Positions 9,457 through 38,327 of a stretch of DNA of 64,000 bases are shown piece after piece (the stretch's first letter is position 1; each line of letters starts with the position of its first letter). A program made the translations under genes and the position numbers. Source of the stretch: Escherichia coli (lineage in GTDB: Bacteria; Pseudomonadota; Gammaproteobacteria; Enterobacterales; Enterobacteriaceae); NCBI RefSeq assembly GCF_016903815.1, contig NZ_CP069973.1; one strand, 5' to 3'. The notes beneath the pieces are model-generated. The model saw only the letters and a program-made list of their open reading frames with translations. It had not been told where the DNA came from and made no database searches.

Positions 9457-9481
9457 GTGTCGGATGCGGCGCATCCGACAC
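9457..9481. repeat. REP-like perfect palindrome GTGTCGGATGCGGCGCATCCGACAC between convergent yiiG and frvR
   Basis: Seen directly; contains the GCCGGATGCGGCG-type REP core. Confidence 0.7.
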
Positions 9482-9484
9482 AGT

Positions 9485-11233
9485 TCACCCCTTGTGAAGT
9501 AACTCCATAAATGCCTCATATCCTGTTAACCCGGCAATAACCTCTGCCGGATGCTGACACAATACGCTTGCCAGATAGCTGAATATTTTTAGCTCATGAC
9601 GCGCATCGGCGGCGGCACAGGCGATCAGCACATGGTTAACTACTTCGTTATTCACCTCAACCGGTTGGGCGAGGGTAATAAAAAATCCACGAAAACGGCG
9701 TTCCTGTTCGCTCCAGCAATGTGGGATGGCGAGACGATTAACAATCAGGTTTTCGCCTTCGCTTTCGCGGGCGATGATCCGTTGTACTTCATCGGCGGTA
9801 ATGTGGTGTTGCGTCACTAATTGCGCACAAATTTGCCGGGTAATATGTTGCCAGCTTTCACCACGTACATTCGAATAATGAAAACTTCCGGGGGCAGAAA
9901 AAAAACGCTCCGGTTGCTGGCGAATAAATGCCGTCGCCAGAAAATGTTTTATTTGTTCGATACCGGCAGCCGTAATGATATTTTTTACGATGATGCAATT
10001 ATTGACCGCATCATCCAGTAAATAATGGCTGTTATTAATGATCAATAACGGCTCAATCTCTTCGCGAATGGCAACAAGTTCGCTTAAGCTACGGGCAATA
10101 ATCACCCGACAATGTAAAACATCGCGCTCAATGGCGAGCTGATTAATGGTGGCAATCGCGTTCTGGTCCGAGAGCAAAATGATCGGCTGGCGTTCGTTTT
10201 GATGCCGTTCCAGCGCACAGGCAAAATACAAACCGATCAGATCGCTGTCGAAAAGGGGAATATCGAGTTGTTCACGCAGTAGCGTAATAAAGTGCAGACT
10301 CATATCAAAGGCCGCAGGCCAGGCGGCTTTCAGGTTATTCATGCTGCTTTGGCGGTGCTCACCTATCCACACCGGCGCGGCAAGGCAACGTAATAAATGC
10401 CCGGTAATATTCTCAACCAGTTGCGTATCAATAATATTCAATGACGCAATGCCCGGCACCCTTTGCAGCAATGCCAGCACATTATCGACACAAATAACCT
10501 GCGCCTGTTGATGCTGTTTCTCTATCAACCCCGTCAGGGTTCTTACAGCGTTATCACCAAGAAACAGGCCGCTTTGTTCAACGATTTGTTTTATCTCGTC
10601 ACCGGGATATTGCGGCCACTCATCGGTCAGTTGATTACGCAGGGCGTAAATCGCCAGAATCAGGCTGGAGAGATAATCACCCTGCATCAGCGGCCAGCGG
10701 TGTTGGTTGTCGCAGACCGTGGATAATTGCTGAAGGTTGTCTCGTGTTACGCCCGCCAGAGGAATTAAAAACGGATCTTTGCGTAAAAGATTCGCCAGCA
10801 AAATAATGCGTTTCTCTTCTGTCTCATCAATGAAATGGCCCAAACCAGGGCGACTAGCGAGACAAAAACCGCGTTCATAGCGCTGTTTCAGGCGGGGCAG
10901 GCGCTCTGCTACCCACGTTTCTGGCAAATTAAGCGCCGAGGCGAGTTGCGCACGGGGAGTGAAGGTATTCAGTAATAGCAGCGCCAGCAGCCGATCGTCG
11001 TTATCGTGCTTTTGCAGCAACTGAAAAAAGCTGCGGCGCTCGAAGATTTCCAGCTGATAGCCCGCGTTGCCACTGGCGGAAATGCGGGCTTTGCCGTTAA
11101 GGGTAAAGTTGAGATAGTCAATATCACGCAGAATGGTCCTACCAGAAACGCCAGTCTGTTGCGCCAGCTCGCCAGGCGTGCGTGGCTGTTGCTCCAGCAG
11201 ATCGACAATCTTTAACTGGCGTTCGTTTAGCAT
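9485..11233 (-). CDS. frvR: frv operon transcriptional regulator
   Basis: 582-aa ORF; synteny with frvXBA. Confidence 0.88.
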   Translation of the reverse strand: MLNERQLKIVDLLEQQPRTPGELAQQTGVSGRTILRDIDYLNFTLNGKARISASGNAGYQLEIFERRSFFQLLQKHDNDDRLLALLLLNTFTPRAQLASALNLPETWVAERLPRLKQRYERGFCLASRPGLGHFIDETEEKRIILLANLLRKDPFLIPLAGVTRDNLQQLSTVCDNQHRWPLMQGDYLSSLILAIYALRNQLTDEWPQYPGDEIKQIVEQSGLFLGDNAVRTLTGLIEKQHQQAQVICVDNVLALLQRVPGIASLNIIDTQLVENITGHLLRCLAAPVWIGEHRQSSMNNLKAAWPAAFDMSLHFITLLREQLDIPLFDSDLIGLYFACALERHQNERQPIILLSDQNAIATINQLAIERDVLHCRVIIARSLSELVAIREEIEPLLIINNSHYLLDDAVNNCIIVKNIITAAGIEQIKHFLATAFIRQQPERFFSAPGSFHYSNVRGESWQHITRQICAQLVTQHHITADEVQRIIARESEGENLIVNRLAIPHCWSEQERRFRGFFITLAQPVEVNNEVVNHVLIACAAADARHELKIFSYLASVLCQHPAEVIAGLTGYEAFMELLHKG

Positions 11234-12309
11234 TAATCCACCTGACGGAACTGGCTAAACGCGTTGACTTTCTCCGCGGTTAAGGTGGTCAGAAAATCCC
11301 GTATCAACGTGAGCAGAGCATCGTAATCGGCTTTTGAAATCATGCCGCTGTTGGCGTGCAGATAACGCGTTGGCAGGCACAGCGCAACAACCGGGCGACC
11401 GCCACCCATCACGTTGTAGCGCCCGCCATCCGTCGCACCGGTTTTCATAGTGGAAAATTGCAGCGGTAAATCATTCTGCGTGGCACAGCTTTTTAACGCT
11501 GCTACCAGTTTCTGGTTGGGGAAGTAGCGCTTGTCAAACAGCATCAGCCCCGGCCCGTTGCCCAGTTTCAGCGGATATTTAATGTTATCAATGCCTGGAA
11601 CATCACCTGCGACAGCGGTATCCAGCACGATCACCACATCCGGTTTAATGTGTTCAGCCGAGGTTTGCGCCCCGCGTAGCCCAACTTCTTCTTCCACACT
11701 GCCAACGCCATACAGCGTAATTTCGGGGTTATTCACCGTCTGCAATAGCTCAGCCATCATTGCGCAGCCGATGCGATTATCCAGCGCCTTGCCGACCACT
11801 TTATCTTCGCCCCAGCAGGCAAAATTGGCTTCCGGGCTAATAAAATTGCCAATTTCCACGCCGCGTTTTTCTGCTTCTTCGCGACTGTTCGCGCCAATAT
11901 CAATGAACATCTCATCAAATGACAGCGGTTGTTGCTTTTGCTTTTCCGTTAACGCATGAGGCGCGACGGAACCAATCACACCAGGGATTTTAAATCCCTT
12001 GTGTGTGCGTATGGTTACCCGGTGGTTGAGCATCGACTGATTCCACCAGCCGCCAATGGTGGTAAAACGCAGAAAACCGCTCTCGTCGATGTGGGTGACC
12101 ATAAAGCCGACTTCATCCATATGCCCGACAACGGCAACTTTTGGACCTTTATTTCCCTTACGGGCAACAAAGCTGCCCAGACCATCAAAGGTGATCTCAT
12201 TAACGCAAGGTTCCAGCGTGTTTATCAGAATGTCGCGAACTTCCTGTTCATCGCCGCTGACGGCGCTGGCTTCGCACAACTGTTGCAGTAACTCAATGTT
12301 CATGGACAA
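11233..12309 (-). CDS. frvX: M42-family aminopeptidase/endoglucanase-like protein
   Basis: 358-aa ORF (start may be a few codons in); synteny. Confidence 0.88.
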   Translation of the reverse strand: MSMNIELLQQLCEASAVSGDEQEVRDILINTLEPCVNEITFDGLGSFVARKGNKGPKVAVVGHMDEVGFMVTHIDESGFLRFTTIGGWWNQSMLNHRVTIRTHKGFKIPGVIGSVAPHALTEKQKQQPLSFDEMFIDIGANSREEAEKRGVEIGNFISPEANFACWGEDKVVGKALDNRIGCAMMAELLQTVNNPEITLYGVGSVEEEVGLRGAQTSAEHIKPDVVIVLDTAVAGDVPGIDNIKYPLKLGNGPGLMLFDKRYFPNQKLVAALKSCATQNDLPLQFSTMKTGATDGGRYNVMGGGRPVVALCLPTRYLHANSGMISKADYDALLTLIRDFLTTLTAEKVNAFSQFRQVD

Positions 12310-37093: not shown

Positions 37094-37189
37094 GTTTTTC
37101 TCCTGTTTTGATTGACTTGCCTTATCTTCGTTCTCCGAACAAAAAAATTCCAGTCCCGAAGGACTGGAAGGCTCAATCGATCAAATCAC

Positions 37190-38200
37190 TCAGAGAATGT
37201 GCACCTGCATTTCCGGGTCTTTGCGATCCAGATAGTGGATGGACTGAATGCGGCGAATAGTGCGTGACTTGCCGCGGATCAGCAGCGTTTCGGTAGTCGC
37301 GATATTGCCTTTGCGGCTAATGCCTTCCAGCAGATCGCCTTTGGTAATACCGGTGGCAGAGAAGATGACGTTATCGCTGCGCGCCATATCGCCCAGACGC
37401 AATACTTTACCGGCTTCGATGCCCATCGCTTTGCAGCGTGCCAGCTCCTGCTCGCCAATGCGACGATTCTCTTCGTTGTCGCCTTTGACGTCATGACGCG
37501 CCAGCAGACGACCGTTCATGTCACCATCTAATGCGCGGATCACCGCCGCAGAAACCACGCCTTCCGGCGCGCCACCAATACCGTACAGCACGTCAACTTC
37601 GCTGTCTGGCATACAGGTGAGAATTGAGGCCGCAACGTCGCCATCCGGAATAGCAAATACGCGTACGCCGAGTTGCTGCATTTCAGCGATAACGGCATCG
37701 TGGCGTGGTTTAGCCAGAATCGTTACCGTCAGTTCGCTCAACGGTTTGCCGAGCGCCGCCGCTACATTGCGCAGGTTATCCGCCAGCGGCAGGTTCAGAT
37801 CAATGGTGCCTTTGGCTCCCGGTCCGACGATCAGCTTCTCCATATACATATCTGGCGCGTTGAGGAAACAGCCTTTATCGCCTACTGCCAGCACCGCCAG
37901 CGCGTTAGCCTGGCCCATCGCCGTCATGCGCGTGCCTTCAATCGGATCAACAGCAATATCTACCGCGTCGCCGCGACCAGTACCGACTTTTTCACCAATG
38001 TAGAGCATCGGTGCTTCGTCGATTTCACCTTCACCAATAACGATGGTGCCGTCAATGTTGACCTGGTTGAGCATAATACGCATGGCGTTTACCGCTGCGC
38101 CGTCCGCGGTGTTTTTATCGCCGCGTCCTAACCATTTGTAGCCAGCCAGCGCCGCAGATTCGGTGACGCGGGAAAATTCGATGGCAAGTTCTCGTCTCAT
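37190..38200 (-). CDS. glpX: class II fructose-1,6-bisphosphatase
   Basis: 336 aa from MRRELAIEFSRVTESAALAGYKWLGRGDKN; track ORF over-extends. Confidence 0.94.
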   Translation of the reverse strand: MRRELAIEFSRVTESAALAGYKWLGRGDKNTADGAAVNAMRIMLNQVNIDGTIVIGEGEIDEAPMLYIGEKVGTGRGDAVDIAVDPIEGTRMTAMGQANALAVLAVGDKGCFLNAPDMYMEKLIVGPGAKGTIDLNLPLADNLRNVAAALGKPLSELTVTILAKPRHDAVIAEMQQLGVRVFAIPDGDVAASILTCMPDSEVDVLYGIGGAPEGVVSAAVIRALDGDMNGRLLARHDVKGDNEENRRIGEQELARCKAMGIEAGKVLRLGDMARSDNVIFSATGITKGDLLEGISRKGNIATTETLLIRGKSRTIRRIQSIHYLDRKDPEMQVHIL

Positions 38201-38298
38201 AGCAAACTCTAAGCAGTAAGGAATGGCGCGAAGTGTAGCACAGGGGAAGGGCGGGATTATTGATGTGTGCGGGGTTGCCCCCGCACGATTCAGGACTA

Positions 38299-38327
38299 CC
38301 GGATGCGGCATAAACGCTTCATCCGGT
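38299..38327. repeat. REP-like palindrome between glpK and glpX
   Basis: CCGGATGCGGCATAAACGCTTCATCCGG. Confidence 0.6.

Follow-up and report, generated by a model that had tools for sequence, protein, structure and literature searches.

The stretch of DNA analysed here, 64,000 nucleotides from an Escherichia coli contig (NCBI RefSeq NZ_CP069973.1) and called the window below, carries short G+C-rich palindromes at several of its gene junctions. In the RefSeq annotation the gene order of the left part is nadS–yiiE–fdhE/fdoIHG–fdhD–yiiG'–frvRXBA–porin–rhaMDAB–rhaSR–rhaT–sodA–kdgT–yiiM–cpxAR–cpxP–fieF–pfkA–sbp–cdh–tpiA, and after a gap that of the right part is glpXKF–zapB–…–priA–rpmE–Rhs–IS1–yiiX–metJ–metBL–hyp–5'-nucleotidase, hyp being a hypothetical gene. 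The palindromes that recur between these genes are almost certainly the classical repetitive extragenic palindromic (REP) repeats of E. coli, also called palindromic units, and the bacterial interspersed mosaic elements (BIMEs). Knowledge of REPs and BIMEs goes back to the 1980s. Six units of the Y, Z1 and Z2 types are present at four spacers (rhaA–rhaD, yiiM/cpxA, pfkA–sbp and glpK–glpX). The window also has a decayed remnant and three short hairpins resembling REPs, which are numbered as REPs in the K-12 curation too.

The palindromes are assigned to the REP family because of enrichment of the core motif, searches with two kinds of profile, matches to the Rfam families naRNA4 and ES036, and dispersion in many copies. 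The core motif, GCCKGATGCG, occurs five times in the window against 0.55 expected, and none of 100 shuffled sequences reached five. A profile hidden Markov model (HMM; nhmmer) built from the clear REP units of the window gave E values of 4e-6 to 5e-11 for REP units and of 0.006 for the glpK–glpX unit. A covariance model (CM) was trained on 20 K-12 units only, to avoid circularity, and run over the whole window with filters off; it gave 45.7-60.1 bits for five units, 26.3 bits for the glpK–glpX unit (38299-38326), and 19.7 bits for the decayed remnant (24071-24090). Occurrence and copy number were determined by BLAST in 5,426 complete E. coli genomes, a search to which matches shorter than about 21 nt are invisible and which is therefore weak for short units. 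The Y unit at 31256-31290 (query 31250-31296) is found at 40 or more places per genome in 5,425 genomes, and the glpK–glpX unit (query 38289-38335) at a median of nine places per genome. When the hairpins of the units are compared, 95.6% of cells are paired and four pairs show compensatory changes, a result that none of 500 shuffles equalled. An exact-seed search for inverted repeats finds perfect palindromes only and misses imperfect REP stems, and is thus unsuitable for discovering REPs.

The units of the window conform to the E. coli consensus as published, GTAGG..GGATAAGgCGttCACGcCGCATCcGGCA, and to the Z2 form (PMC2817692). Units of the family have a GT(A/G)G head, to which an imperfect G+C-rich palindrome of about 30-40 nt is joined. 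The GTAG head is present in the units at 26128-26165, 26177-26211, 31191-31220 and 31256-31290. It is absent from 17305-17339, which has GTCG instead, from 38299-38326, and from the hairpins at 9457-9481, 25318-25343 and 33329-33351, which are 19-26 nt long. The original prediction had listed five REP-type sites, and all five stretches exist where it placed them, as stable hairpins of -17 to -49 kcal/mol (z scores -2.2 to -7.5). Four of them belong to the REP family; the fifth, 9457-9481, is a real palindrome and the curated K-12 element REP298, but it scores at the level of noise. The list also needed some repair. It began the pfkA–sbp site at 31205, which cuts 14 nt off a Z1 unit whose true start is 31191, and it left out the remnant at 24071-24090, REP300 (25318-25343) and REP303 (33332-33350). 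Curated K-12 REP numbers and coordinates used here are from the supplement of a recent preprint (10.64898/2026.03.23.713779).

In the rhaA–rhaD spacer of rhaBADM there is a single Y-type unit (17305-17339, plus strand), with a CM score of 45.7 bits (E 3e-12), an HMM E value of 6.6e-9 and a fold of -18.4 kcal/mol. Its head is mutated, GTAG having become GTCG and GGAT having become GAAT. The convergent spacer of yiiM and cpxA is occupied by a doublet. Its left half, a Z2-type unit (26128-26165, plus strand; K-12 REP301; CM 54.2 bits), has perfect core arms, GCCTGAT...ATCAGGC, and its right half is a Y-type unit (26177-26211, minus strand; CM 60.1 bits; HMM E 3.4e-10) that is inverted relative to Z2 across a linker of 11 nt. 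The doublet folds to -44 kcal/mol on one strand and to -49 on the other, with z of about -7, and matches Rfam naRNA4 at 26131-26208 of the minus strand with 78.6 bits against a gathering score of 59.5.

The 3' untranslated region (3'UTR) of pfkA contains a BIME-1. Its left half is a Z1-type unit (31191-31220, minus strand; K-12 REP302 by numbering; CM 48.7 bits) with perfect core arms, and its right half a Y-type unit (31256-31290, plus strand; CM 59.5 bits). The 35-nt linker between them is of the L type (31221-31255, minus strand), and the Rfam family ES036 (CssrF) matches it at 31213-31254 of the minus strand with 48.2 bits against a gathering score of 37.6. Within the linker, on the minus strand at 31231-31243, the sequence ATTCAATAAATTG resembles the consensus site for IHF, agreeing with eight of the nine specified positions of WATCAANNNNTTR. 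The Y unit is followed by a small palindrome, GACAAAG-CGCA-CTTTGTC (31293-31310), to which the K-12 BIME-1 flank GACAACGTGCGCGTTGTT is analogous. The element is 82-86% identical to K-12 REP297 and REP305 over 124-159 nt, and the pfkA terminator hairpin lies downstream of the Z1 unit, at about 31320-31345. The fourth spacer, glpK–glpX in glpFKX, has a degenerate Y-type singlet without a GTAG head (38299-38326, minus strand; K-12 REP304), which scores 26.3 bits in the CM search (E 5e-6) and folds to -17.2 kcal/mol (z -4.8). The remnant (24071-24090, plus strand) retains the inner stem-loop of a Y unit, ATGAGGCGTTTACGCCGCAT, between decayed outer arms; it matches CM positions 10-29 with 19.7 bits (E 7e-4) and is situated 19 nt past the sodA stop codon, upstream of the intrinsic terminator of sodA.

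The three short hairpins have less in common with the family. In the cdh/tpiA convergent spacer is GTGCCGGAT-ATGAA-ATCCGGCAC (33329-33351), the curated REP303 (33332-33350), with a CM score of 15 bits (E 0.02). It has a perfect REP core in both arms, no GTAG head and no inner stem, and is a borderline family member; the query 33317-33363 matched its own locus only, in 5,425 of 5,426 genomes. The yiiG'/frvR convergent spacer contains a perfect 12+12 palindrome, GTGTCGGATGCG-G-CGCATCCGACAC (9457-9481), 3 nt from the frvR stop codon, which folds to -19.8 kcal/mol (z -5.1). The curated K-12 REP298 (4088082-4088102) matches it exactly at window position 9460. It resembles the 5' arm of a REP only (TGTCGGATGCGGCG versus TGCCGGATGCGGCG); its CM score of 9 bits (E about 1.7) falls among coding-region noise, its HMM E value is 1.3-2.5, and the query 9446-9492 matched only the home locus, in 3,992 genomes. 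The third hairpin, CCGGATGAAC-TAAC-GTTCGTCCGG followed by TTT (25318-25343, plus strand), lies between kdgT and yiiM, 21 nt past the kdgT stop codon, and matches the curated sequence of REP300 exactly. It looks like a terminator, folds to -18.7 kcal/mol (z -5.4), and has no CM match up to E=10.

These properties bear on the alternative, to which we give an even chance, that the palindromes listed, all of them or only some, are ordinary transcription terminators or hairpins of mRNA 3' ends that are specific to their loci and similar to REPs only through a G+C-rich stem with CCGGAT/ATCCGG. Scores of 26-60 bits, dispersion in many copies and Rfam matches exclude it for the six canonical and degenerate units. 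The short hairpins are another matter. With the CM they score at the level of noise or close to it (E 1.7 for 9457-9481, E > 10 for 25318-25343, E 0.02 for 33329-33351), all three are without a GTAG head, and two of them, 9457-9481 and 33329-33351, were found by BLAST at the home locus alone, although that search, blind to copies below about 21 nt, speaks only weakly against short units. REP303 appears in a published list of bidirectional terminators, and equally stable hairpins that are not REPs occur at the 3' ends of accessory genes. Loose definitions of the palindrome can push the number of K-12 'REPs' to about 4,000 (PMC12306157). Against the terminator reading, all three hairpins carry REP numbers in the curated K-12 list, and perfect REP core arms such as those at 33331-33349 are expected only 0.03 times per window. 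A run of T residues, which immediately follows the G+C-rich hairpin of an intrinsic (Rho-independent) terminator, is absent on either strand at 9457-9481, 33329-33351, 16080-16106 and 63881-63910 (the last two being accessory hairpins described below), and only TTT follows 25318-25343.

Scanning with a REP model and tabulating the matches against gene junctions, as the original prediction had proposed, was carried out over 59 junctions, among which are 33 core spacers of at least 30 bp, eight accessory spacers, five convergent core spacers with room for an element and ten divergent spacers. REPs were found in a minority of the core spacers and in none of the accessory ones. Under a strict definition they occupy 4/33 core spacers (5/33 with the sodA remnant) and one of the five convergent spacers; under the curated definition the numbers rise to 7/33 and three of five. 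Among the junctions of fdoGHI, frvABXR, rhaBADM, cpxRA, glpFKX, hslVU and metBL, operon-internal REPs are present at rhaA–rhaD and glpK–glpX only. The statement that REPs mark most convergent or operon-internal junctions therefore holds for convergent spacers when the curated list is used (3/5), but it holds neither under the strict definition (4-5/33 core spacers, 1/5 convergent) nor for operon-internal junctions.

All REP matches lie in 3' or intercistronic spacers, between co-directional or convergent genes, and none of the ten divergent (promoter) spacers has one. The distance from stop codon to REP is 4 nt for rhaA, 6-7 nt for glpK, 10 nt for yiiM (to the GTAG head), 11 nt for cpxA (to the GTAG head, on the cpxA transcript) and 55 nt for pfkA. 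Genome-wide, about 60% of REPs are placed between convergent genes, 40% between tandem ones and 1% between divergent ones, 207 of 704 convergent spacers being occupied (preprint 10.64898/2026.03.23.713779). K-12 has 355 REP elements in 4.64 Mb (same preprint), from which about 4.9 are expected per 64 kb. The density in the window, about one locus per 9-16 kb, fits the genome-wide figure. The window is thus ordinary in both the placement and the density of its REPs.

The accessory blocks were defined by alignment as the four stretches of the window that have no counterpart in K-12 MG1655. They are the left end (1-1101 in part; 1.1 kb), the porin block (14337-16111; 1.8 kb), a block with Rhs, an IS1H-like element and a nested IS1 (49901-56185; 6.3 kb), and a block downstream of metL with a hypothetical gene and a 5'-nucleotidase gene (61046-64000; 3.0 kb). 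Across these four stretches the CM detected no REP-family unit, the best matches being 12.6 bits inside insB of IS1 and 8.1 bits at 63869-63891. The claim that the accessory blocks lack REPs is accordingly borne out as far as REP-family units are concerned, since these best matches are noise.

Two accessory hairpins were considered as REPs and rejected. One, at the right edge of the porin block between porin and rhaM (16080-16106), is G+C rich with an 11-bp stem, GCGGTGCTGGA-TATTT-TCCGGCACCGC, and folds to -23.0 kcal/mol (z -6.1); it occurs at one place per genome in 2,557/5,426 genomes and has no CM match. A half-site scan allowing one mismatch per arm, the tolerance needed to admit 9457-9481 and 38299-38326, lets this hairpin pass as well, and it yields 58 matches, mostly in coding sequence, against 12 expected. 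The other is a 13-bp G+C-rich palindrome, ATTCGGCCTACGC/GCGCAGGCCGAAT with GGCCTAC (63881-63910), which lies 56 nt past the 5'-nucleotidase stop codon and folds to -20.4 kcal/mol (z -3.9). As a REP it would have contradicted the original prediction, which was to fall if REP-like units were equally frequent in accessory DNA; it is found at one place per genome in 1,832/5,426 genomes and scores 8.1 bits (E 3.4) with the CM. Both hairpins may be functional analogues of REPs in acquired DNA, acting as terminators or as stabilisers of mRNA 3' ends.

The further claim, that the distribution of REPs supports a partition of the window into core and acquired DNA, has no statistical weight here. Occupied core spacers number 4, 5 or 7 of 33, depending on the definition, against none of eight accessory spacers, and the corresponding one-sided Fisher p values are 0.40, 0.32 and 0.19. 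Counted per base pair, the chance that all loci would fall in core intergenic DNA is 0.29, 0.21 and 0.11 for 4, 5 and 7 loci. The partition argument lacks power because the 12.1 kb of accessory DNA, at K-12 density, should contain only 0.93 elements, so that P(0)=0.40. The absence of REPs from the accessory blocks is within chance.

It could still be that the porin, Rhs/IS and metL-downstream blocks form a true 'REP desert', having arrived recently from REP-free donors and not having been colonised since. In the Pseudomonas fluorescens group, whose genomes have 500-1,500 REPs, REP deserts are tracts of 25 kb or more without a REP, far longer than the usual distance between REPs and coinciding with atypical composition or mobile elements (PMC3390384). 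The contrast in the window goes in the predicted direction (0/8 accessory versus 4-7/33 core spacers), the G+C content is low (0.38-0.44) in the porin block and at the left end, and a 32-kb island encoding a type VI secretion system (T6SS) and Rhs proteins elsewhere in strain 7/2, the closest relative of the window, is likewise without a REP. However, the contrast is not significant by any of the counts (p=0.11-0.40; 0.93 elements expected, P(0)=0.40). The further 50 kb of strain 7/2 that contains the T6SS/Rhs island does not discriminate, as the 17 kb of core DNA flanking the island has no REP either. The three blocks measure 1.8-6.3 kb against the 25-kb threshold, and at about one REP per 13 kb absence is uninformative in blocks so far below it. 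Even at core junctions the REP loci are polymorphic, at about 50%, and as the lineage seems to be without rayT, the gene for the REP-associated tyrosine transposase (RAYT), new colonisation would be unexpected anywhere. We regard a true desert as possible, with somewhat less than an even chance. The practical consequence is that, with about one REP locus per 13 kb, the absence of REPs cannot classify blocks of a few kb as acquired.

A comparison with K-12 indicates how variable the REP loci are. The orthologous segment of K-12 has ten curated loci, REP297-REP306, and the window has seven of them. REP297, the BIME-1 of K-12 yiiF/fdhE, and REP305, the BIME-1 of K-12 yiiX–metJ, are absent. REP306 (K-12 metL–metF) is absent too; it belongs to the first 198 bp of that spacer, which a 3-kb accessory block replaces. 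REP299 (rhaD–rhaA) is in K-12 a BIME-2 of nine units, Y and Z2 in alternation with a period of 92 bp; the window has one unit there and is shorter by 368 bp (4 x 92 bp). At 56796-56854 the window has an intact intrinsic terminator of metJ, into the loop of which the REP305 BIME-1 is inserted in K-12. The filled REP305 allele is present in 2,713/5,426 genomes; the accessory blocks are found at comparable scale in the same collection, the porin block in 47%, the rpmE–Rhs junction in 40% and the metL-downstream block in 34%. REP loci are therefore not a stable marker of the core, their occupancy being itself a presence/absence polymorphism. This is in line with the 'extensive interstrain differences' described for BIMEs (PMC2817692, citing Bachellier et al. 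1997). A tie between the absence of REP305 and the neighbouring Rhs island was considered and is not obligatory, as strain GABEEC10 has the empty site, no Rhs, and rpmE beside yiiX.

The closest relative of the window is E. coli strain 7/2 (NZ_CP023820.1). The region 9000-31500 is 100% identical to this strain and to several other genomes, and the first 32,000 positions match it exactly; the second half has 14 single-nucleotide polymorphisms (SNPs) relative to it, all after 50065, and 768 additional bp at 54705-55472. The strain is of interest for its rayT locus. The K-12 rayT gene (yafM) is located between yafL and lfhA, with six REP units flanking it. In strain 7/2 (279656-282612) the hicB antitoxin gene occupies this place, rayT and the BIME-2 clusters on its flanks being absent, and a tblastn search with RayT found no homolog in the window or in the strain 7/2 sequence examined, namely the canonical locus plus about 115 kb. 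The rayT allele occurs in 3,566/5,426 genomes (66%) and the hicB allele in 1,478/5,426 (27%). The REPs of the window are probably no longer mobilised, and are still family members by descent.

The scarcity of REPs relative to K-12 (about 9 versus about 22 units, with three loci empty) might then reflect erosion after the loss of rayT, unrelated to any partition into core and accessory DNA. RAYT-less E. coli genomes carry fewer REPINs, and tandem clusters are known to collapse by deletion (PMC8049555), which agrees with the lack of rayT and its flanking BIME-2s in strain 7/2 and with the rhaA–rhaD locus, where one unit with a mutated GTAG head stands against nine in K-12. But K-12 may instead have gained BIMEs: the REP305 site of the window, with its intact metJ terminator, resembles a vacant target more than the scar of a deletion. 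The sodA remnant has decayed further in K-12, whose copy has two more substitutions, than in the window, a small counter-example to uniformly greater erosion in the lineage of the window. The comparison moreover covers one 64-kb region, and for the rayT status it borrows from strain 7/2. On balance we think erosion an unlikely account of the difference. It is in our view very improbable that REP/BIME spacers are, as a general rule, preferred breakpoints at which accessory DNA of E. coli is gained, lost or replaced, and that lineages without rayT, such as this one, progressively lose their REPs there; all three K-12 loci missing from the window do lie at or near structural variants, REP306 within the 198 bp replaced by the metL-downstream block, the REP305 site about 630 bp from the Rhs/IS1 island, and the REP297 site abutting the variable left end of the window, and if the rule held, REP presence or absence would inform on the turnover of islands and not on 'coreness'.

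Some of these structural variants are of interest in themselves. By Rhs, a canonical 768-bp IS1 (54705-55472; context 54473-56075) with a 9-bp target duplication, CGCTCAATG, is nested in an older, divergent IS1H-like element. The nested insertion was found in 0/5,426 complete E. coli genomes, the best match covering 95% of the query in two pieces. That the 768 bp extra to strain 7/2 were a tandem IS1 copy was considered and rejected, no internal repeat having been found. The 14 SNPs between the window and strain 7/2 are all within the Rhs core gene (50065-54704), with none in the preceding 50 kb. This points to recombination between copies of Rhs, or else to a close relative of strain 7/2 as the source of the window. 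An Rhs element immediately after rpmE is common in E. coli, the rpmE–Rhs junction (49847-50100) being present in 2,176/5,426 genomes; in K-12, rpmE and yiiX are neighbours, and the point of insertion holds only 5 bp. The metL-downstream block (61046-64000 and beyond), present in 1,832/5,426 genomes, takes the place of the first 198 bp of the K-12 metL–metF spacer, including the metL terminator and REP306, and is for this reason an allelic replacement and not a simple insertion. The hypothetical gene at 61008-62138 on the minus strand overlaps the 3' end of metL by 37 nt.

Elsewhere in the window, yiiG is a pseudogene in RefSeq, its 5' end truncated at 8788-8795, without 470 bp that K-12 has. 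Three Rfam families unrelated to REPs also exceeded their gathering scores: SECIS_3 at 7032-7090 on the minus strand, inside the gene for the alpha subunit of formate dehydrogenase; the ClpQY promoter element of hslVU at 44906-44963 on the minus strand; and the leader of ribosomal protein L31 at 49575-49627 on the plus strand, upstream of rpmE.

As for function, REPs would be non-autonomous elements that the RAYT (RayT/YafM) tyrosine transposase spreads and amplifies by acting on the GTAG head and hairpin in single-stranded DNA (PMC2817692). Once transcribed in a 3'UTR or between cistrons, the hairpin would block 3'-to-5' exonucleases and stabilise the upstream message, and might in part terminate or attenuate transcription into the downstream gene. 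The expected outcome would be a skew of expression within rhaBA|D and glpFK|X, and the yiiM/cpxA doublet could act in both directions. According to a recent preprint, REPs in RNA act as elements of the 3'UTR in a way that depends on context, protecting the upstream transcript and also partly terminating transcription, in part via Rho (10.64898/2026.03.23.713779). Translation can be lowered by REPs closer than 16 nt to a stop codon, as summarised in PMC12306157, and the units after rhaA, yiiM, cpxA and glpK, which are that close, may likewise stall terminating ribosomes and reduce translation. BIME-1 linkers bind IHF and BIME-2 binds gyrase, and Pol I and Rho have also been linked to REPs (PMC2817692); the linker of the pfkA BIME-1, judged by its letters, probably binds IHF.

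Several points weigh against reading the palindromes of the window uniformly as REPs with the properties of the family. The hairpins at 9457-9481, 25318-25343 and 33329-33351 fail the family tests or barely pass them, and may be locus-specific and terminator-like. Every functional step proposed for the window carries over from REPs elsewhere. In those REPs the effects depend on context, and the half-lives of REP-bearing mRNAs are not uniformly longer (preprint 10.64898/2026.03.23.713779). The rayT status ascribed to the window's own genome is that of strain 7/2, which departs from it after 50065 by the 14 SNPs and the nested IS1.

The REPs placed 4-11 nt after the stop codons of rhaA, yiiM, cpxA and glpK are nevertheless candidates for differential mRNA stability, attenuation and translational effects, and because these REPs vary between strains, their effects on expression might vary too. 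The findings all belong to biology that is already known and well described. Their useful outcome is methodological, and otherwise they are mainly annotation.

With REP deserts (PMC3390384) the original prediction shares the idea that REPs follow older, stable regions and are missing from islands and mobile elements, but the blocks of the window, of 1.1-6.3 kb at about one REP locus per 13 kb, are too small for the desert definition. The comparison is closer with the REPIN–RAYT system (Bertels & Rainey; Park et al. 2021, PMC8049555), in which inverted REP doublets are the likely mobile unit and tandem clusters expand and collapse. There, too, rayT is a single-copy gene flanked by REPs in K-12, and some E. 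coli are without it and have fewer REPs (PMC8049555). The difference is that the closest relative of the window has hicB instead of rayT.

The BIMEs of the window can be compared with two known types. The yiiM/cpxA doublet, Z2–short linker–Y, has a composition that fits BIME-2 and naRNA4 (Rfam RF02564; REP325 is the model element), and it scores 78.6 bits against naRNA4. BIME-2 is an array of tandem alternating Y and Z2 units, which gyrase binds and cleaves, and relative to it the loci of the window are minimal, one doublet (yiiM/cpxA) and one singlet (rhaA–rhaD) with no tandem array. A role in the nucleoid with HU, proposed for naRNA4, is disputed (preprint 10.64898/2026.03.23.713779). The pfkA–sbp element has the organization of a BIME-1, or RIP (REP–IHF–REP): an inverted pair of Z1 (31191-31220, minus strand) and Y (31256-31290, plus strand), a 35-nt L linker and a small flanking palindrome. 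The linker of a RIP has an IHF site, and pfkA–sbp has a putative site only, with 8/9 consensus positions.

As for the individual units, the closest known system is that of the Y, Z1 and Z2 units of E. coli REPs (Stern/Gilson; PMC2817692). The GTAG head, the imperfect G+C-rich palindrome of about 30-38 nt and the consensus are shared with them, and so are the extragenic position in transcribed 3' regions, the many copies and the compensatory G-C/T-A change between Y and Z (PMC2817692). The three short hairpins (9457-9481, 25318-25343 and 33329-33351) fall far below this length and cannot be assigned to the family on statistical grounds, and the rhaA–rhaD and glpK–glpX units have lost the GTAG head, but the four canonical units of the window are identical in kind to the E. 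coli REP units.

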